From: a bacterium
GTDB taxonomy: Bacteria > Bacillota > Clostridia > Christensenellales > Aristaeellaceae
Direction of reading: 5' to 3'
Length of the DNA: 64,000 nucleotides
Assembly: GCA_963618055.1 (NCBI GenBank)
Contig: CAVERI010000006.1
Location: 431 to 64,430 of the forward strand
A model generated the notes under the pieces. The model was not told where the DNA came from and searched no databases. It saw nothing but the letters and a program-made list of their open reading frames with translations. Shown here in pieces: positions 48,557-58,287 of the stretch (the first letter of the stretch is position 1; each line of letters opens with the position of its first letter). The position numbers and the translations under genes were made by a program.

Positions 48557-49664
48557 TTATGCCACCTCTGCACTCGATACGTTGCGATAGTGATTCAAAA
48601 GAGAAAGCGAGCGAAATACGACTACAATCCAGCAGAAAGCGAAAATCCCAATGCCGATAAGCAAACGCCAGATTGCCGGAAGGGAGACGAGGATCATTCC
48701 CTCAAACCACAGATTGATCAATTCCAAACCGGCCAATGCGGCAAGGTAAGAAGTCAGGCTCAGCAGCAGAATATTGATTGTGCAAAAGAACAGGATGTGT
48801 CTTTTTTTCGCTCCGCAGACCATGCACACCCGATAGCGTTCGCGTTCACTTCGAAACCAGTAAATAATAATCAATACGACGGCCACCAGCGACATAAGCA
48901 ATATGGCGGAATACGTAGACAGCACTTCAAGCAGACTGCTTCTGATCGATTCCCTTGTTCCCGGAATATAGTAGTCGTCAACGCTTTCATAGGATGAAAT
49001 CATCTGCGACAGCATATTCTGCTGCTCTTTTGATAAAATGCCTGCGAAATGGCAATTCAGCATTATGGGTTCGCGGCCCGACGCTAAATAGGTCTTTGCC
49101 GGCATGGCAATGAACGTTGGAATTGGAACATCCAATGCCAGTTCTGACAGCGGAAAGTACCGGGCAATATCCGTATAGCCTCCCACCGCGTCAAAATGGG
49201 TTTCGTCGATTTCTATGCCCTCATCCCATATATGATCCGCTTTTTCCTGCGGAAGATTGCGAACATATTCAAGGGACAGCAGCGCGACATTCTTTCCTTT
49301 TTCCATTTCGTCCTGTGAAAACAGCCTGCCATATGGTATGGACATCTGAAACTGTGATGCTTCATAGGAGATACCTGTGCACTGCTCATCGATCAGGCTG
49401 ATGGAAAAAAATCTCCGGAAGGGACTCGCTGCTTACAATATCATTGTATATAGAAATGATATCCTCTGAAACCGCGCTCTCTGCGAACACATATTCCTGC
49501 GACAGGCTATTCTGGTAGGTATACAGCCCTTTTTCAACCAGCACGAGAAAGCTCAAAGCGGTTATCGCCAAGCTTAGTCCGGAAAGAATCGCAAACGCCT
49601 TGCGGTAGCGGCATAGCTTCAGAAAGTTGCGCACGGCTACAAAAAACATCTCTATACGCTCCAA
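48557..49664 (-). pseudogene. FtsX-family permease gene interrupted by a frameshift at an A7/T7 homopolymer
   Basis: ORF 49386..49664 encodes TM1 plus the start of the ectodomain and ends ...PEIFFHQPDR-stop. The frame of ORF 48557..49345 is open upstream (SLIDEQCTGISYEASQFQMSIPYGRLFSQDEMEKGKNVALLS...). Removing one base of the run at 49405-49411 fuses them into one TM1-ectodomain-FtsX protein of about 368 aa. Confidence 0.7.
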
Positions 49665-49898
49665 TCGTATTGATATAATGCGAGGAGGGGCTGACCGTTC
49701 TTTCTTGGAAAATACATCCTATTTATAATATACCACAATAAGCACTATATGTCGACAACAATTTTAAACGAGTCAAACCTTCTCACCTCCTCGTCCTTTA
49801 GACACGCGTCCGCGCAAAACGTTACAGGTCTTCCGCATAAAGATGGCGGGGATGAACGCGGGGCGCAAAAATTTACCGGAGGTGCGCGTTTTTGTGTA

Positions 49899-49927
49899 TT
49901 GACATGATGGGTGAGCGGAATTATAAT
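49899..49927 (+). promoter_or_regulatory. consensus promoter of the aromatic amino-acid operon
   Basis: TTGACA (49899-49904), exactly 17 nt, TATAAT (49922-49927). Confidence 0.65.
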
Positions 49928-49957
49928 GAAGCAAATTGAAGGAAAGGAGCGAGCAGA

Positions 49958-50017
49958 TTGATCGGCATGAAGAAGGCTGCGGCGTTTTATTACTTTTACT
50001 TTATCGGCTTCCGATAA
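49958..50017 (+). CDS. candidate aromatic (Phe/Tyr-rich) leader peptide of the aro operon
   Basis: AAGGAG (49944-49949), then 8 nt, then TTG 49958, with an in-frame ATG at 49967. It encodes (M)IGMKKAAAFYYFYFIGFR-stop (TAA 50015-50017), with six consecutive Phe/Tyr codons at 49985-50002. This ORF is not in the ORF track. Confidence 0.55.
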   Translation: MIGMKKAAAFYYFYFIGFR

Positions 50018-50068
50018 GGTATGTTTTGCTGCAACCGAATGGCGATAAATCGGGCCCGCTTCTCAAGG

Positions 50069-50107
50069 AACGGCTTCGCAGTGAAACATCCTGCGAAGCC
50101 GTTTTTT
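50069..50107 (+). terminator. attenuator terminator in the aro operon leader
   Basis: A perfect 13-bp stem, AACGGCTTCGCAG (50069-50081) / CTGCGAAGCCGTT (50091-50103), with a 9-nt loop running into T6 (50102-50107). It sits 25 nt upstream of the aroF ATG. Confidence 0.8.
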
Positions 50108-50131
50108 CATTATTGGATGGAGGAATGACGG

Positions 50132-51151
50132 ATGATTATTCTGCTGAAGGAAAACGCGAACGCCAGACAGGTGGACAACCTGAAGAAATTTCTCACGAAC
50201 CGCGGCTTTGACCTGCACATTTCCGAGGGCACGCAGCACACGCTGATCGGCCTGATCGGCGACACCTCGAAGCTGGACATCGACCTGATTTCCTCCTTAG
50301 ACGTGGTGGAGTCCGTGCGGCGCATTCAGGAGCCGTACAAAAACGCCAACCGCAAGTTCCACACGGCGGATACCGTGGTGGACGTGGGCGGCGCGAAGAT
50401 CGGCGGCGGGCATTTCATGATGATCGCGGGGCCGTGCTCGGTGGAGACGCACGACCAGATTCTTTCCGTCGCCGAGTCCGTGAAGGCGTCGGGCGCGAAC
50501 ATGCTGCGCGGCGGCGCGTTCAAGCCGCGCACGTCGCCCTACGCGTTTCAGGGGCTGCACGAGAAGGGCATCGAGCTTCTGCGCGAGGCCAAGAAGCAGA
50601 CGGGGTTGCCCATCATCACGGAAATCATGGACATTAACCACCTGCCGCTGTTCGAGGACGTGGACGTGATTCAGGTGGGCGCGCGCAACATGCAGAACTT
50701 CGAGCTTCTGAAGGAGCTGGGGCAGACCCGCAAGCCCATCCTGCTTAAGCGCGGGCTGGCGAACACGATTGAGGAGCTTTTGATGAGCGCCGAATACATC
50801 ATGGCCGGCGGCAACGAGCAGGTCATCCTGTGCGAGCGCGGCATTCGCACCTTCGAAACCGCCACCCGCAACACGCTCGACCTGTCCGCCGTGCCGGTGC
50901 TTCATAAGCTCACACACCTGCCCGTGGTGGTGGATCCCAGCCACGGAACCGGCGTGAACGATCTGGTGCATCCCATGGCGCTGGCGGCCGTGGCGGCGGG
51001 CGCGGACGGCCTGATCATCGAGGTGCACAACGACCCGCCGCACGCGCTGTGCGACGGCAAGCAGTCGCTGACGCCCGAGCAGTTCGACCGCCTGACCAAG
51101 GCGGTGCGCGGCATTCTTCCGTTCGCGGCGAAGGAGATGACGTGGGAATGA
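50132..51151 (+). CDS. aroF: 3-deoxy-7-phosphoheptulonate (DAHP) synthase, type I-beta, with an N-terminal ferredoxin-like regulatory domain
   Basis: GGAGGA RBS. The first 70 aa or so ([44 protein letters not shown]) form an extra domain. The core has [24 protein letters not shown] and DPSH. Confidence 0.95.
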
Positions 51152-51978
51152 ACGTCGGTATCGTGGGGCTCGGCCTGATTGGCGGCTCTCTGGCCAAGAG
51201 CGTCAAAAAGCACAGCGAGCATACCGTGTGGGGCTTTGACATTGATTCCGACGCAGTGACGCAGGCGCTGATGTGCGGCGCGATTGACGAAGCGCTGACG
51301 GACGCGCTGCTTCCGCGCTGCGGCGTGGTGCTGGTGGCGCTGTATCCGGGCGCGTGCGTGCGCTACATCGAGGAGCACGCGGAAGCGTTCGCGCCGGGCG
51401 CGTGGGTGATCGACTGCGCGGGCGTGAAGCGCGCCGTGTACGAGCCGGTTTCGAAGGTCGCCGAGGGGCGAGGCTGGACGTACATCGGCGGGCACCCGAT
51501 GGCGGGGCGGGAGTATTCCGGCTTCCGTCACGCGACGGGAACGCTGTTTGAGCGCGCCAGCATGATTCTCACGCCCATGCCGGACGCGGACATTGAGACG
51601 CTGGAGGCCGCGAAGGCGTTCTTTCTGGAAATCGGCTTCAAAACCGTGCGCATCACCACGCCGGAGGAGCACGACCGCATGATTTCGTACACCTCCCAGC
51701 TGGCGCACATCGTTTCCAGCGCGTATATCAAAAATCCGTGCTCCGCGCAGCACAAGGATTTTTCCGCCGGCAGCTTTCAGGACATGACGCGCGTGGCGCG
51801 GCTGAACGAAACCATGTGGACGGAGCTGTTTCTGGACAACGCCGACCTGCTGGTGCCGTCCATCGACGATTTGATTCTGCGCCTGACCCAGTATCGCCGC
51901 GCGCTGGCGGAGGAAAACGCCGGCGAGCTGCGCGAGCTTCTGAAGGAAGGGCGCGTCATGCGCGAGAACCTCGATTAA
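51148..51978 (+). CDS. tyrA: prephenate dehydrogenase
   Basis: ATGA overlap with aroF. The N-terminal Rossmann motif is [23 protein letters not shown] and [19 protein letters not shown] are also present. Confidence 0.9.
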
Positions 51979-51992
51979 AAAGGAGAAAGCCC

Positions 51993-53051
51993 ATGCAAAC
52001 CGTACACATTGGCGTTTCCGCTCCCTACGACGTGCTGGTGGGGCCGGGTCTTTTGTCCGAATGCGGCGCGCGCATGCGCGAAGCGGTCGGGCTGTGCCGC
52101 GCCGCGATTGTGAGCGATTCCACGGTGGACGCGCTCTACGGCGACCGGGTGGAGCGCAGCCTGCGGGAATCCGGGTATGACGCGCTGCGGTGCGTTTTTC
52201 CCGCCGGAGAACGGAACAAGACGCTCGCGACGCTCGGCGGCATTCTGGAATTTCTGGCGGAGAACCATCTGACGCGCGCGGATGTGGTCGTGGCGCTGGG
52301 CGGCGGCGTGACCGGCGATATGGCGGGCTTCGCGGCGGCGGTGTACATGCGCGGCATTCGCTTTGTACAGCTGCCCACCACGCTGCTGGCGGCGGTGGAC
52401 GCTTCCGTGGGCGGGAAGACGGCGGTCGATCTGGCCGCGGGGAAGAACCTCGCGGGCGCGTTTCATCAGCCGTCGCTGGTGCTGACGGACGTGGACGTGA
52501 TTCGCGCGCTGCCACAGCATCTTCTTTCGGACGGCGCGGCGGAGATCATCAAGCACGGCGTGCTGGCCGACGCGGCGCTGTTTGAACGGATGTGCGCGCC
52601 GGATTGGACGCGCGAAATGGAGACGATTCTCGCGCGCAACGTCGCCATCAAGCGCGACGTGGTGGTTTCAGACGAGCGCGAAAACGGCGCGCGGCAGCTT
52701 CTGAACCTTGGCCACACCTTCGGGCATGCCGTCGAGAAGTGCTCCGGCTACGCGATGAGCCACGGGCAGAGCGTGGCCGTGGGCATGGTTCTCGCCGCGG
52801 GCGCGGCGGGGAACGAGGACGTATGCCGCGCGATTATCGCCGCCAGCCGGAACTGCGGGCTGCCGGTGACGGCGCCCTATTCCGCGAAAACGCTCGCGGA
52901 GGCGGCGCTTTCGGATAAAAAGCGTCGGGGCGGCCTTGTGACGCTGGTGCTGCCCGAGCACGTCGGCAGGTGCCGGCTTGAAAAGGTGGAGGTTTCCCGG
53001 CTGGAGGAATATTTCCAGAAGGGGATCGCCATGGCGGAGGCGGTTTCATGA
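51993..53051 (+). CDS. aroB: 3-dehydroquinate synthase
   Basis: ATG 51993 follows AAGGAGA. Motifs are [35 protein letters not shown] and [12 protein letters not shown]. Confidence 0.95.
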
Positions 53052-54376
53052 ACGCGGTGATTCATCCCGGGCTTTTGCAGGGCGGCGTGCGGGTTCCGCC
53101 GTCCAAATCGGCGGCGCACCGCGCGCTGATCGCGTCGGCGCTGGCGGACGCGCCGACGGAAATCGAGATTTCCGCGCTGAACGAGGACATTCTGGCGACG
53201 ATCGGCTGTCTGCGCGCGCTGGGCGCAAAGATTGAACAGACGGACGAGGGACTGCGCGTGTCTCCGATTGAAAGAGCGAGCCGCGCGGAAGCCGCGGGCG
53301 AGAATGGGATTCGCGCGTCTTCGGACGGAGAATCAGTTTGCGCGGAGTCGGCGGGCGAGGATGAATTGCGCGTGCTGAACTGCGGGGAAAGCGGTTCGAC
53401 GCTGCGGTTCATGCTGCCGGTCGCGGCGGCGCTGGGCGCGGCGTGCGTGTTTACCGGCGGCGGACGGCTTCCCGAAAGGCCGAACCGCATCCTGACCGAC
53501 GCGCTCAACGCGCACGGCGCGTATGCGGACAGGGAGCTTCTGCCGATTCGCCTTTCAGGACGGCTGACCGGCGGCACGTATGCCGTGGCCGGAAACGTGA
53601 GCTCGCAGTACATTACCGGGCTTCTGCTGGCGCTGCCGCTGTGCGCGCAGGACAGCGAAATCGTGCTGACAAAGGCGCTGGAATCAGCGTCGTATGTGGA
53701 AATCACGCTTGAAACGCTGGCGGCGTTTGGCGTTCGGGTGCTTAAAACGCAGCAGGGCTGGCATGTGCCCGGCGGTCAGCGCTACAGAAGCCCCGGCCGC
53801 GTGCGCGTGGAGGGCGACTGGTCGGCGGCCGCGTTCTGGCTGGCGGCGAACGCGCTCGGCAGCCGTGTGGAATGCAAGGGGCTGAACGCGGACTCCGCGC
53901 AGGGCGACCGCGCGATTGCGCGAATGCTGAACGAGCTGGGCGGTGAAATCGACGTGTCCGACACGCCCGATCTGGTGCCCGCGCTGGCCGTCGCGGCGGC
54001 GGCGCATCCGGGGCAAACGCATATCACCGGCGCGGCGCGGCTGCGGGTGAAGGAAAGTGACCGTCTGCGCGCCGTGGCGGATTTGCTGCGCGCGCTGGGC
54101 GGGCGGGTCGAGGAGCTTTCGGATGGGCTGATCATCGACGGCGGGCATCCGTTTACCGGCGGAACGGTGAACGGCGCGAACGATCACCGCATCGTAATGG
54201 CCGCCGCCATTGCCGCGACCGCCGCGCGGGGCGACGTAATCATCACGGACGCGCAGGCCGTGGCGAAGTCCTACCCGGGTTTCTTTGAGGAGCTCCGGCG
54301 GCTGGGCGGGCGCTGCGAGGTTGGATGCAATGAAACAACTCCGATGGCGGGGAGGGAAGGGAAATGTCAAATCTGA
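53048..54376 (+). CDS. aroA: 3-phosphoshikimate 1-carboxyvinyltransferase (EPSP synthase)
   Basis: ATGA overlap with aroB. Motifs are PPSKSAAHRALI, NCGESGSTLRFM, LRVKESDR and NDHRIVMA. Confidence 0.95.
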   Translation: MNAVIHPGLLQGGVRVPPSKSAAHRALIASALADAPTEIEISALNEDILATIGCLRALGAKIEQTDEGLRVSPIERASRAEAAGENGIRASSDGESVCAESAGEDELRVLNCGESGSTLRFMLPVAAALGAACVFTGGGRLPERPNRILTDALNAHGAYADRELLPIRLSGRLTGGTYAVAGNVSSQYITGLLLALPLCAQDSEIVLTKALESASYVEITLETLAAFGVRVLKTQQGWHVPGGQRYRSPGRVRVEGDWSAAAFWLAANALGSRVECKGLNADSAQGDRAIARMLNELGGEIDVSDTPDLVPALAVAAAAHPGQTHITGAARLRVKESDRLRAVADLLRALGGRVEELSDGLIIDGGHPFTGGTVNGANDHRIVMAAAIAATAARGDVIITDAQAVAKSYPGFFEELRRLGGRCEVGCNETTPMAGREGKCQI

Positions 54377-55440
54377 TCGGCAACCGGTTTCGCGTGCTCG
54401 TGTTCGGGCAGTCGCACGCGCCGTCGATCGGCGCGGTGATCGAGGGGCTTCCCGCCGGGTTTGTGCCCGACTGGGATGCGGTTTCCGCGTTTATGGCGCG
54501 GCGCGCGCCGGGCGGAAGTGCGCTTTCCACGGCGCGCAGGGAGGCGGACGCGCCGGAGATTCTGTCCGGGCTGAACGAACGCGGGGAAACCTGCGGCGCG
54601 CCGCTGGCTATGCGCATCGTGAACGGCGACGCGCGCTCGCGGGATTACGAGAAGCTGAGGGACGTGCCGCGCCCGGGGCACGCGGATTATCCCGCGGGCG
54701 TGAAGTTTGACGGGCACAGCGACATTCGCGGCGGCGGGCAGTTTTCAGGCCGTCTGACCGCGCCGTTGTGCTTTGCGGGCGCGCTCGCAATGCAGCTTTT
54801 GGCGCGGGAGGGCGTGCGCGTGCGCGCGCGTATCGCGCAGATTGAAGGCGTGTTCGACGCGCCGATGGACTTCGCGAGGCCGAAGCTGGACGCGATTGCG
54901 GCCGAGGGGCTGCCGGTTGTGGATTCGGCGGCGGGCGCGCGGATGGAGCGTGCGATTCTTCAGGCGAAGGCGGAGGGCGATTCCGTGGGCGGCGTGATCG
55001 AGTGCTTCGCCGCGGGGCTTCCCGCCGGACTGGGCGAGCCGATGTTCGACGGCGTGGAAAACCGGCTCGCGCGGGCGCTGTGGGGCATTCCCGCCGTGCG
55101 CGGCGTGGAGTTCGGCGCGGGCTTCGCCGCGGCCGGGATGCGCGGCAGCGCGCACAACGACGCGTACCGCGTGGCAGACGGCCGCGTGGTCACGGAGACC
55201 AACCGGCACGGCGGCGTTCTGGGCGGCATTACGACCGGCATGCCCATCGTCGTGCGCGCGGCGATCAAGCCCACACCGTCCATTGCCAAGGAGCAGGAAA
55301 GCGTGTCCCTTTCCCGAAATGAAAACGAAGTCCTGACCGTGGACGGACGGCACGACCCGTGCATCGTGCCGCGCGCCGTGCCCTGCGTGGAGGCGGTCGT
55401 GGCCATGGTGCTGTATGACCTTCTTTTGGAGAGGAGCTGA
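54364..55440 (+). CDS. aroC: chorismate synthase
   Basis: FRVLVFGQSHAPSIGAVIEG, RRAPG, RPGHADY and GGGQFSGR. Confidence 0.95.
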   Translation: MSNLIGNRFRVLVFGQSHAPSIGAVIEGLPAGFVPDWDAVSAFMARRAPGGSALSTARREADAPEILSGLNERGETCGAPLAMRIVNGDARSRDYEKLRDVPRPGHADYPAGVKFDGHSDIRGGGQFSGRLTAPLCFAGALAMQLLAREGVRVRARIAQIEGVFDAPMDFARPKLDAIAAEGLPVVDSAAGARMERAILQAKAEGDSVGGVIECFAAGLPAGLGEPMFDGVENRLARALWGIPAVRGVEFGAGFAAAGMRGSAHNDAYRVADGRVVTETNRHGGVLGGITTGMPIVVRAAIKPTPSIAKEQESVSLSRNENEVLTVDGRHDPCIVPRAVPCVEAVVAMVLYDLLLERS

Positions 55441-55445
55441 AGAAA

Positions 55446-56585
55446 ATGGAATTGAATTCGGTTCGCGCGCGCATTGACGCGATTGACAACGAGCTTACGC
55501 GCCTGTTCACCGAGCGCATGCAGACGGTGGCGGAGGTGGCGCAGGTGAAAAAGGCGACGGGCAAGGCCGTGCGCGACCCTGCCCGGGAGCGCGCCGTGGT
55601 AAACCGCGTGACCGCGCAGGCGGGCGACGCTTTTGCGCCCTATGTGAAGAACCTGTACGGGCTGATTTTTGAACTGAGCCGCAATTATGAAACCATGCTG
55701 ATGGGCGAGCGCTCGCCGCTGGGCGACCGGATTGAGCAGGCCTGCCGCGAGGGTGAGGGCAAGCGTCTGCCGGGACGCGCGCTGGTGGCCTGTCAGGGTA
55801 CGGAGGGCGCCTACGCGCAGCAGGCGTGCGAAAAGCTGTTCGAATACCCGGACATTCTGTATTTCGACAGCTTTGACGGCGTGTTCAACGCGGTGGAAAA
55901 GGGCATGTGCGAATTTGGCGTGCTGCCCATTGAAAACAGCACCGCGGGCTCCGTCACGCAGGTGTACGACCTGATGGAGAAGCATTCGTTCCATATCGTG
56001 GGCGCGCGCAGGCTTCGGATTGACCATCATCTGCTCAGAAAGCCCGGCGCGGCGGGCCCGATTCGCATGATCGTGTCCCACGAACAGGCGCTTCGCCAGT
56101 GCAGCGAGTTTCTGAACGCGCATCCGGAATGCGAGGCCGTTCCCATGGCCAATACCGCCGTGGCGGCGCAGTTTGTCGCGGATTCCGAGCGCGACGACGT
56201 GGCGGTGATTGCCGCGAAGACGTGCGCGGAGCTGTATAATCTGGAGGTCGTCGGCGAATCCGTGAGCAATGTGCAGAGCAACTATACGCGCTTTATCTGC
56301 ATTTCCCGCAGGCTGGAAATCTATCGCGGGGCGCGGAAAATCTCCATCATGTGCAACCTGCCCCACGAGGCGGGCTCGCTGAACTCGGTCATTTCCCGGC
56401 TGGCCATCGCGGGCATCAACCTGTGCAAGCTGGAAAGCCGGCCGATTCCCGGGCGCGATTTCGAATTTCGCTTCTTCTTTGATATGGAAGCCGACCCGCG
56501 AGACCCGGAGGTCGTGCAGCTGTTGTGCGAGCTGGAGCGCAAGAGCGAGCATTTTGTGTTCTTGGGCGCATATGAGGAGCGCTGA
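55446..56585 (+). CDS. pheA: bifunctional chorismate mutase / prephenate dehydratase (P-protein) with C-terminal ACT domain
   Basis: CM_2 N-terminus (LNSVRARIDAIDNELTRLFTERM), PDT core (VACQGTEGAYAQQA...PIENSTAGSV), and ACT (ISIMCNLPHEAGSLNSVISRLA...NLCKLESRP). Confidence 0.9.
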   Translation: MELNSVRARIDAIDNELTRLFTERMQTVAEVAQVKKATGKAVRDPARERAVVNRVTAQAGDAFAPYVKNLYGLIFELSRNYETMLMGERSPLGDRIEQACREGEGKRLPGRALVACQGTEGAYAQQACEKLFEYPDILYFDSFDGVFNAVEKGMCEFGVLPIENSTAGSVTQVYDLMEKHSFHIVGARRLRIDHHLLRKPGAAGPIRMIVSHEQALRQCSEFLNAHPECEAVPMANTAVAAQFVADSERDDVAVIAAKTCAELYNLEVVGESVSNVQSNYTRFICISRRLEIYRGARKISIMCNLPHEAGSLNSVISRLAIAGINLCKLESRPIPGRDFEFRFFFDMEADPRDPEVVQLLCELERKSEHFVFLGAYEER

Positions 56586-56590
56586 CGGGC

Positions 56591-57832
56591 ATGGAATACG
56601 GTTTGATCGGCGAGAGGCTGGGGCACAGCTATTCTCAGATGATTCACGCGCGGCTGGCCGACTATCGGTATGAGCTGAAGGAGGTTGCGCCGGAGAAGCT
56701 GGACGCGTTCATCGAAGCGCGGAATTTCCGGGGGCTGAACGTCACCATTCCCTACAAGCAGGCGGTGATGAAGCACTGTGCCGAGCTGTCGCCGGAGGCG
56801 GTAGAGGTGGGCAGCGTGAACACGCTCCTCTTGCGCCCGGACGGCAGCCTGTTTGGACACAACACGGACATCGATGGCTTCATTTATATGCTGCGCCGGG
56901 GCGGAATCGAGCCCGCCGGCGCGAAGGCCGTGATTCTCGGCAGCGGCGGAACCAGCCTGACCGCCCATGCGGCGCTGACAAGGCTGGGCGCGCGGGAGAT
57001 CGTGACGATTTCCCGCAGGGGGCCGGTGGACTACGCGGCGCTGTACGCCGAGCATGCCGACGCGGAGATTTTAGTGAACGCTACGCCCGTGGGCATGTAT
57101 CCGAAAAACGGTGTGTCGCCGGTGGAGCTCGGCCGGCTGCCGAGCGTGCGCGGCGTGGCGGACGTGATCTATAACCCCGAAAAGACGGCGCTGATTCTCG
57201 CCGCGCGGGCGAAGGGCATCCCGGCTGTGTCGGGGCTGACCATGCTGGTCGCGCAGGCGCGGGAGGCGGCGGAGCTGTTCGCGGGACGCGCGATTCCCGC
57301 CGAACGCGTGAAGGACATTGTGTCCGAAATCGGCGCGCAGACGCTGAACCTGATTCTGGTCGGCATGCCCGGCTGCGGAAAGACGACGCTGGGTCAGGCC
57401 GCCGCCGCCGCGCTCCAACGGGAATTTGTGGACTGCGACGCGGAAATCGTGTACCGCGCGGGGAAATCCATTCCGGAAATCTTCGCGCAGGACGGCGAGA
57501 GCGCGTTCCGGGCGCTGGAAAGCGACGTGCTGGCGGACGTGTGCCGCGGGCACGGACTTGTGATTTCCACCGGCGGCGGCGCGGTGCTGCGCCCGGAGAA
57601 CAGGAACGCCATGCGCCAGAACGGGCGCGTCTGCCTGATTCGACGGGCGATTGAATTGCTCCCGCGCGACGGACGGCCATTGTCCGCGTCGGAGGACGCG
57701 GTGGAGCGGCTGTGGGAAGCGCGCCGCGCGGCGTATGAATCGGCGGCGGATTTCTCGGTGGAAAACGACGGAACCGTCGAATCGGCGGCGGAGAAGATAA
57801 GGGAGGGCTTTTATGAAGCTGCTCATCATTAA
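56591..57832 (+). CDS. fused shikimate dehydrogenase (AroE) / shikimate kinase (AroK)
   Basis: The N-terminal half has GLIGERLGHSYS, NVTIPYKQ, NTD and GSGG. The C-terminal 150 aa or so has P-loop LILVGMPGCGKTT, then FVDCD and STGGGAV. Confidence 0.9.
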   Translation: MEYGLIGERLGHSYSQMIHARLADYRYELKEVAPEKLDAFIEARNFRGLNVTIPYKQAVMKHCAELSPEAVEVGSVNTLLLRPDGSLFGHNTDIDGFIYMLRRGGIEPAGAKAVILGSGGTSLTAHAALTRLGAREIVTISRRGPVDYAALYAEHADAEILVNATPVGMYPKNGVSPVELGRLPSVRGVADVIYNPEKTALILAARAKGIPAVSGLTMLVAQAREAAELFAGRAIPAERVKDIVSEIGAQTLNLILVGMPGCGKTTLGQAAAAALQREFVDCDAEIVYRAGKSIPEIFAQDGESAFRALESDVLADVCRGHGLVISTGGGAVLRPENRNAMRQNGRVCLIRRAIELLPRDGRPLSASEDAVERLWEARRAAYESAADFSVENDGTVESAAEKIREGFYEAAHH

Positions 57833-58247
57833 CGGGCCGAACCTGAACATGCTCGGCATTCGGGAAAAGCATCTTTATGGCGCTCGGGATTACGCGGCGC
57901 TGTGCGAATACGTGAGAGAGCAGGGGCGGCGGCTCGGCGTGGAGGTGGAGCTGTTCCAGTCCAACCACGAGGGCGCGCTGGTCGACTGCATTCAGGCGGC
58001 GTATCAGCGCATCGACGGCATTGTGATCAACCCGGGCGCGTACACGCACACCAGCGTCGCGCTGCTGGACGCGCTGAAGGCCGTGGACATTCCCGCCTGC
58101 GAGGTGCATCTGACGGACGTGAACGCGCGCGAGGAATTTCGCAGGATTTCCTATGTGCGGCTGGCCTGCAAAAGGACGTTCGCGGGCTGCGGCTTCGACG
58201 GCTATCGGATGGCGATGGAGTACTTGGTCGGCGAACAGCCGGAATAA
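57813..58247 (+). CDS. aroQ: type II 3-dehydroquinate dehydratase
   Basis: MKLLIINGPNLNMLGIRE..., FQSNHEG and INPGAYTHTSVAL. It overlaps the 3-prime end of aroE/K by 20 nt. Confidence 0.95.
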   Translation: MKLLIINGPNLNMLGIREKHLYGARDYAALCEYVREQGRRLGVEVELFQSNHEGALVDCIQAAYQRIDGIVINPGAYTHTSVALLDALKAVDIPACEVHLTDVNAREEFRRISYVRLACKRTFAGCGFDGYRMAMEYLVGEQPE

Positions 58248-58253
58248 AAAACG

Positions 58254-58280
58254 GCGGCGGGGGAGAAAATCCCTCGCCGC
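58254..58280. terminator. hairpin between the convergent aro operon and glycosidase gene
   Basis: GCGGCGGGGGA (58254-58264) pairs with TCCCTCGCCGC (58270-58280), with a GAAAA loop. The T-run follows on the minus strand (A6 at 58246-58251 on the plus strand), so it is best suited to the minus-strand gene. It may also stop the aro transcript. Confidence 0.6.
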
Positions 58281-58287
58281 TCCATGG

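Follow-up and report, generated by a model that had tools for sequence, protein, structure and literature searches.

Leader-peptide attenuators of amino acid operons in the Firmicutes include the leu/phe leader of Lactococcus. Within the same phylum, histidine leaders have been predicted in the Bacillus cereus group (hisS/hisZ) and for the his operon of C. difficile (PMC2965389, PMC9413887). In a Firmicutes-related lineage, the uORFC-13-1 motif, with 24 representatives in Acholeplasma and environmental sequences, has been predicted upstream of aroF (Brewer et al. 2021, PMC8632094). The aroR-aroF system of Corynebacterium glutamicum, whose leader carries the residues F-Y-F, has been studied experimentally and is Phe-responsive, with Tyr reportedly without effect (Neshat 2014, as relayed in PMC11802643 and PMC4046766). 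Here, we describe a Phe/Tyr (F/Y)-rich leader open reading frame (ORF) and a terminator upstream of the aroF-led aromatic amino acid operon in a 64,000-nucleotide stretch of an Aristaeellaceae genome (contig CAVERI010000006.1, positions 431 to 64,430; hereafter the window). Together they very probably control the aro operon by attenuation of the classical type, in which a ribosome translating a leader peptide governs transcription, with charged tRNA-Phe and tRNA-Tyr as the sensed signals.

A preliminary description of the locus, made from the sequence alone, had proposed a Phe/Tyr leader-peptide attenuator of the aro operon acting without a T-box, and this proposal is supported, having passed every computational test applied. 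The underlying observation is real: a perfect promoter, a Shine-Dalgarno sequence (SD), an in-frame TTG/ATG and a tiny ORF are all present where they had been described, apart from two spacings that each needed correcting by 1 nt (Table 1). The promoter is the only 12/12 match in the 16 kb scanned, and the only strong promoter match in the intergenic region 5' of aroF, where it sits upstream of the leader; transcription would start near 49934, about 7 nt past the -10 box. Reading of positions 49700-50400 bears out the run of six consecutive Phe/Tyr codons with a later seventh aromatic codon (TTC, 50009-50011) and no TGG. The ORF translates as LIGMKKAAAFYYFYFIGFR, with a TAA stop at 50015-50017, and is the only one on either strand of the 64-kb window (G+C 61%) to hold at least five F/Y per eight residues; an F/Y-rich leader ORF at this base composition is more than chance. 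A leader with Phe and Tyr codons only fits the operon, because pheA and tyrA are encoded there and trp genes are not. Sensitization through rare codons was considered and rejected, since the leader's Phe and Tyr codons are not rare by the usage of the operon genes (TTT:TTC 38:44, TAT:TAC 31:29).

The terminator has 13 perfect bp and a 9-nt loop (dG -27.6 kcal/mol, z -7.7 against shuffles). The 13 bp and the T6 run agree with what had been proposed, and the spacings become 51 rather than 52 nt from stop codon to stem and 24 rather than 25 nt from T-run to the aroF ATG. Region 2, the 5' strand of the antiterminator, starts 4 nt past the leader stop codon, and its conserved core, UGUUUUGCUGC (50022-50032), pairs with GCAGUGAAACA (50078-50088), reaching into the terminator loop. 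The extended duplex, 50022-50037 with 50071-50088, has a predicted energy of -17.3 kcal/mol, and a CTGCAACCG:CGGCTTCGCAG pairing makes up its lower portion, which is bulged. The 2:3 pairing originally suggested, CTGCAACCGA with CGGCTTCGCAG, is thus part of the antiterminator, but it is the weaker lower part and not the conserved core.

Constrained folds of a transcript ended at 50090, before the terminator 3' arm, show the antiterminator switch when a stalled ribosome is compared with one at the stop codon. With the ribosome at the F/Y codons and the RNA upstream of it unavailable, AUGUUUUGCUGC (50021-50032) pairs with GCAGUGAAACAU (50078-50089) in a 12-bp stem; the structure closed by this stem has about -21 kcal/mol. 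Moving the ribosome to the stop codon masks the initial 8 nt of region 2, the stem is gone, and an unrelated structure of -11.3 kcal/mol is left. Folding the full leader to equilibrium with the ribosome positions masked was dropped as a test of the switch, being uninformative on a kinetic process.

To place the leader in a comparative setting we used 80 AroF-homologous loci (63-75% identity) from species-representative genomes, most of them metagenome-assembled genomes (MAGs) labelled Oscillospiraceae, Lachnospiraceae, Ruminococcus, Acutalibacteraceae, Anaerovoracaceae or simply Clostridia. The 300 nt upstream of aroF were scanned for ORFs in 78 loci, with dinucleotide shuffles and the reverse strand as controls. 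A small ORF with at least five F/Y per eight residues is present in 65 of the 78 loci (4.2% of shuffles, 2.6% on the reverse strand), and one with at least six in 45 (0.7% and 0%, respectively). The F/Y ORF 5' of aroF is therefore kept across these homologues.

The loci with both an F/Y ORF and a terminator of -12 kcal/mol or lower number 63, the window counted. Their leader ORFs start with ATG in 59 cases and have an SD-like sequence in 81%, and their codons total 264 TTT, 64 TTC, 134 TAC, 110 TAT and 5 TGG, with both synonymous codons in use for Phe as for Tyr. The peptides (for example MTSVCLNAAYFYFYFIYTSR, MKNSYSNASYFYFYYYFTYNR and MNILNFAAEYFYFYFFGFIQRG) range from 14 to about 47 aa, and both length and sequence are free outside the F/Y run. 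The Phe codons are skewed to TTT while the Tyr codons are balanced, a skew that may come from RNA pairing – U-rich strands against GAAA in the terminator loop – and not from codon choice. Four loci (L004, L008, L018 and L026) have Tyr-dominated leaders (YAYYYVLY, DYYYALY, GYYYYYVL and FYYYVLF) and a different, G-rich region 2 (GCAGGGCG); these leaders may be tuned to Tyr. Two MAGs binned to the PVC group (Planctomycetes, Verrucomicrobia and Chlamydiae), L061 (Victivallaceae) and L076 (Kiritimatiellae), carry an F/Y leader and terminator before a Clostridia-like aroF at 65-69% identity, which reflects either horizontal transfer of the operon together with its leader or mis-binning.

The antiterminator covaries across these loci. 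When the sequence following the F/Y run is paired with the 5' arm and loop of the terminator, the best duplex extends to the loop's far end in nearly all loci. The loop and its partner change together, for example GCTAATTTGTGATGC with GCGGCACAGGTTAG in L012, GTGTATTTTGC with GCAAAATACA in L016, and AGCGATTTGTGC with GCACGGAATCGC in L055. The 2:3 duplex averages -15.4 kcal/mol with the locus's own region 2 vs -11.3 kcal/mol with a foreign one (Wilcoxon p = 9e-11), and set against composition-preserving shuffles it has a mean z of -2.16, with p <=0.05 in 58% of loci. The region 2 motif GUUUUGCUGC and its partner GCAGUGAAAC are conserved at the nucleotide level across distant loci.

Column-wise counts agree in two alignments. 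In a MAFFT alignment of 26 leaders (A1), 78.9% of cells of the 11-pair antiterminator are paired vs 33-53% when the strands are slid, with 22 double-change cells (a count reached in 1/500 shuffles); the terminator has 85.8% of its cells paired and 72 double-change cells (0/500 shuffles). A1 places L012, L041 and L078 two columns off the structural register, which lowers its pair counts. In a second alignment, fitted with Infernal only to the terminator and the sequence (A4), the antiterminator is 81.5% paired vs 36-54% slid, with 27 double changes (0/500 shuffles). The region 1:2 duplex is also stronger within loci than between them (-12.2 vs -8.9 kcal/mol, p = 5e-7), with region 1 mapping between roughly -15 and +5 relative to where the F/Y-rich stretch begins, and the evidence for this helix is weaker than that for the 2:3 helix. 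The alternative 1:2 / 2:3 / 3:4 pairing logic attributed earlier to the leader therefore holds, with 2:3 and 3:4 covarying and 1:2 conserved, although the pairings themselves have been corrected.

The position of region 2 relative to the ORF matches a ribosome footprint model, in which region 2 is covered by a ribosome that has not stalled but stays accessible when the ribosome stalls. In 43 of the 63 loci the ORF extends into region 2 or beyond it, and in 19 of the remaining 20 the stop codon lies no more than 16 nt upstream of it (median 8 nt), so that the geometry fits 62 of 63 loci. Region 2 starts a median of 24 nt past the last F/Y codon; in the window its first paired base is 50022, at a distance of 7 nt from the first base of the stop codon and of 22 nt from that of the last F/Y codon, downstream of both.

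The unconstrained minimum free energy (MFE) structure of the window's leader contains the region 1:2 helix, a local hairpin, a helix between the SD and the linker, and the terminator. The 7-mer CGGCTTC does occur twice, at 50005-50011 and 50071-50077, as had been pointed out, and by a rough estimate such a repeat within 200 nt is at about chance level. Its first copy had been taken as region 1, an assignment that neither the MFE structure nor the comparative analysis supports and that we rejected; the stretch sits inside the local hairpin at 49997-50021, and the conserved region 1 is 49975-49984. The local hairpin may be a polymerase pause or auxiliary hairpin, as far as the predicted fold suggests.

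The SD-linker helix is extra to the textbook attenuator. It is strong in the window and scores a mean z of -1.0 across loci, where it reaches p <=0.05 in 26%, a subset only. Speculatively, it could allow only the first, co-transcriptional ribosome to translate the leader and could enforce termination when the leader is untranslated. Four MAG contigs with an identical AroF bear on this and on the leader as a whole. From TTG to the aroF ATG their leader is identical but for one extra T in the T-run, and the leader ORF is 100% identical. The promoter spacer and 5' untranslated region carry about a dozen substitutions, with both hexamers kept and the spacer differing at 6 positions. The leader SD reads AGGGAG in these close relatives. 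Two of the substitutions, A49945G and C49954U, lie within the SD-linker helix, and in each case a G-U wobble preserves the pair.

A covariance model (R1) built from 25 other loci (alignment A3), with the window left out, gives a single significant match on the 64 kb, at 50018-50109 on the plus strand (42.3 bits, E = 2e-5); the next match, with E 0.07, covers that terminator on the minus strand. Over 570 kb of loci, all 34 plus-strand matches lie 5' of the AroF match, in its flanking sequence, and 11 of these 34, including the window, had not been used in building the model.

The reported lack of a T-box was borne out, as a covariance search of the leader found neither a T-box nor a known riboswitch. 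Rfam 15 searched over 49600-50300 at E up to 10 returned no T-box (RF00230) and no amino-acid leader family, with matches at chance level only: a glutamine-riboswitch match at 50102-50158 scored 19 bits, where the gathering score is 35 (E 0.21), and was rejected, as were two eukaryotic RNA matches. At gathering thresholds the whole window likewise holds no T-box, and one tRNA only, and nine of the best homologous loci searched at E up to 0.5 gave nothing over the leader. Among 16 loci without a leader ORF or detected terminator, Rfam found one T-box only (L064, downstream of aroF), and no systematic replacement of the leader by T-boxes was seen. The T-box at L064 5259-5503 lies ~1.3 kb downstream of a leaderless aroF, in a MAG (ERR1190762-bin.8) that has two aroF paralogues, the other of which, L063, carries an F/Y leader; L031 has a near-threshold T-box match (47-294; 86.8 bits vs a gathering score of 93) ~1.6 kb upstream of its F/Y leader. 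From these cases, T-boxes and the F/Y leader coexist in these genomes.

The locus thus combines a leader ORF with its SD, clustered regulatory codons, a terminator, 2:3 and 1:2 pairings and a fitting ribosome geometry. From these we infer stalling, a response to Phe and Tyr, and a kinetic order of folding, as follows. A ribosome would load on the leader SD and translate the 19-codon ORF behind the advancing RNA polymerase. If either Phe-tRNA or Tyr-tRNA runs short, the ribosome would stall at 49985-50002, covering region 1 and the local hairpin and leaving region 2 free to pair with 50071-50089 before the terminator 3' arm is made; no terminator would form, and the eight-gene operon would be transcribed. 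When both are plentiful, the ribosome would reach the stop codon at 50015-50017 and mask the 5' half of region 2, the terminator would form, and transcription would end at the T-run. If the leader is not translated, region 1 would pair with region 2 and the leader SD/start region with the linker at 50039-50064, again yielding the terminator.

Several observations weigh against this mechanism. The full-length leader folds at equilibrium into the terminator under every ribosome mask, and the model therefore relies on kinetic, co-transcriptional folding. The leader start codon is ambiguous, being either TTG at a good spacing or the in-frame ATG at 49967, 17 nt from the SD. The comparisons of own and cross-locus duplexes are partly inflated by within-locus G+C matching, for which the shuffle z is a cleaner control, and the 2:3 duplex of the window alone only modestly beats its shuffles (z -1.96, p 0.04). 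The stability of the hairpin, which is never opened in equilibrium folds, would also suit a constitutive terminator, whether a partial attenuator or the end of a small transcript, with an ORF that senses nothing and control exerted elsewhere, such as by a DNA-binding repressor at the promoter. Such an arrangement is improbable: it leaves unexplained the covarying antiterminator, the conserved F/Y run and the ribosome geometry, as well as the location of the only strong intergenic promoter match upstream of the leader.

Conservation of both GUUUUGCUGC and GCAGUGAAAC at the nucleotide level across distant loci could alternatively point to a switch under the control of a factor acting in trans, which might be an RNA-binding protein, a tRNA or a small ligand, with the F/Y ORF incidental or auxiliary, and because region 2 is inside the ORF in 43/63 loci, its conservation there is at the RNA rather than the peptide level. 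However, the two motifs are fully explained as antiterminator strands, an F/Y run with in-frame ATG and SD is kept in 65/78 loci vs 4% by chance, the placement of the stop codon with respect to region 2 is restricted in the way that the ribosome model predicts, and no Rfam riboswitch or T-box matches; we regard a trans-acting factor as equally improbable. Least probable of all is a role of the leader ORF in translation, through re-initiation at aroF or as a functional hydrophobic micro-peptide, and not as an amino acid sensor for termination. The leader peptide is indeed hydrophobic, and re-initiation via leader genes has been proposed to raise downstream translation (PMC4833913), but 114 nt and a strong terminator separate the leader stop codon from the aroF ATG at 50132, and aroF has its own ribosome-binding site (RBS), GGAGG at 50120-50124. 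A functional peptide is further argued against because length and sequence vary freely outside the F/Y run. Attenuation by a ribosome translating the leader therefore remains our preferred explanation.

The genes downstream of the leader are those expected from the preliminary description, an eight-gene operon with pheA and tyrA and without trp genes, and they cover all seven shikimate-pathway steps together with the Phe and Tyr branches (Table 1). Directly 3' of aroQ is a G+C-rich hairpin, GGCGGCGGGGGAG-AAAA-TCCCTCGCCGCTCC (58254-58284), with an A-run before it and no clear T-run after it; the operon probably ends here, and the hairpin may act as terminator of transcription on the opposite strand.

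Table 1. Leader elements and aro operon genes, in window coordinates
Feature	Position	Strand	Basis or details
Sigma-70-type promoter	49899-49927	+	-35 TTGACA 49899-49904, 17-nt spacer, -10 TATAAT 49922-49927
Leader Shine-Dalgarno AAGGAG	49944-49949	+	Sequence reading; anti-SD duplex -8.2 kcal/mol
Leader ORF (L/M)IGMKKAAAFYYFYFIGFR-stop, 19 codons	49958-50017	+	TTG 49958, 8 nt past SD; TAA 50015-50017
Region 1, anti-antiterminator strand	49975-49984	+	Ala codons directly 5' of F/Y run; pairs 50027-50036
Regulatory codons TTT TAT TAC TTT TAC TTT	49985-50002	+	Six F/Y codons in a row
Local 11-bp hairpin UACUUUAUCGG-CUU-CCGAUAAGGUA	49997-50021	+	Spans last two F/Y codons, extra Phe codon and stop
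Region 2, antiterminator 5' strand, core AUGUUUUGCUGC	50021-50037	+	Constrained folds; covariation with region 3
Linker pairing leader SD/start region 49945-49968	50039-50064	+	MFE; duplex -25.0 kcal/mol, z -4.5
Intrinsic terminator, regions 3 and 4	50069-50107	+	Arms 50069-50081/50091-50103, loop 50082-50090, T6 50102-50107
Region 3 of antiterminator	50071-50089	+	Terminator 5' arm and loop
aroF (3-deoxy-D-arabino-heptulosonate 7-phosphate (DAHP) synthase), first gene of operon	50132-51151	+	NF006421, 500.7 bits
tyrA	51148-51978	+	Gene calls on contigs encoding identical AroF
aroB	51993-53051	+	Gene calls on contigs encoding identical AroF
aroA	53048-54376	+	Gene calls on contigs encoding identical AroF
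aroC	54364-55440	+	Gene calls on contigs encoding identical AroF
pheA (chorismate mutase/prephenate dehydratase)	55446-56585	+	Gene calls on contigs encoding identical AroF
aroE-aroK fusion	56591-57832	+	Gene calls on contigs encoding identical AroF
aroQ (type II dehydroquinase)	57813-58247	+	Gene calls on contigs encoding identical AroF

The mechanism is textbook and precedents for aroF leaders exist; the leader apparently belongs to an uncatalogued family across many Clostridia lineages that is absent from Rfam. In the open-access literature searched, we found no description of a Clostridia aro leader, and a prior description is possible. We lean, by a modest degree, towards a large uncatalogued family of Phe/Tyr dual-sensing attenuators of aroF-led operons across Clostridia (Oscillospiraceae, Lachnospiraceae, Ruminococcaceae, Acutalibacteraceae, Anaerovoracaceae and others), characterized by a loop-invading antiterminator (GUUUUGCUGC/GCAGUGAAAC) and, in some members including the window, by a fifth element that sequesters the leader RBS.

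If this is true, gut-associated Clostridia would control the common aromatic pathway at the RNA level mainly by classical attenuation, and not by T-box or TRAP regulation, and leader-peptide attenuation would be common rather than marginal in at least one class of Firmicutes. Annotation pipelines would gain a model for a family absent from Rfam, and a compact switch from nature, responsive to Phe/Tyr through its mixed-codon sensor, would offer a route to how one leader combines two amino acid signals. The switch could also help to predict which members of gut communities are auxotrophic or prototrophic for aromatic amino acids, and to predict cross-feeding among them. Conceptually the gain is modest, the mechanism being unsurprising, and the value lies in annotation and in the physiology of gut Clostridia.

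Attenuation by leader peptides in Firmicutes is less exceptional than the preliminary description had supposed, given the predicted His leaders and the Acholeplasma aroF motif cited above. The His leaders share with the leader described here classical attenuation in the same phylum, in place of a T-box or protein repressor, although the amino acid and the operons differ. The uORFC-13-1 motif likewise places an upstream ORF with Phe codons and an intrinsic terminator directly upstream of aroF, in a Firmicutes-related lineage and with the same proposed mechanism; by its description it differs in having a U-run coding for at least one Phe, with no mention of an alternating F/Y run or of Clostridia members. 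In C. glutamicum, aroR is also a short ORF with Phe/Tyr codons before an operon led by the DAHP synthase gene aroF, and it is a ribosome-mediated transcription attenuator, the mechanism proposed here. That system belongs to the Actinobacteria and has only three regulatory codons, whereas there are six or seven here; and the operon described here, unlike that of C. glutamicum, carries the whole pathway together with pheA and tyrA. The leader also resembles E. coli pheL-pheA and trpL in its regions 1-4, tandem regulatory codons, terminator and antiterminator. It differs from pheL-pheA, represented in Rfam as Phe_leader, in sequence and structure, with no match to that family at E up to 10, and differs further from pheL in that the common pathway and both the Phe and Tyr branches are regulated, the predicted sensor reads two amino acids, and the antiterminator makes use of the terminator loop.

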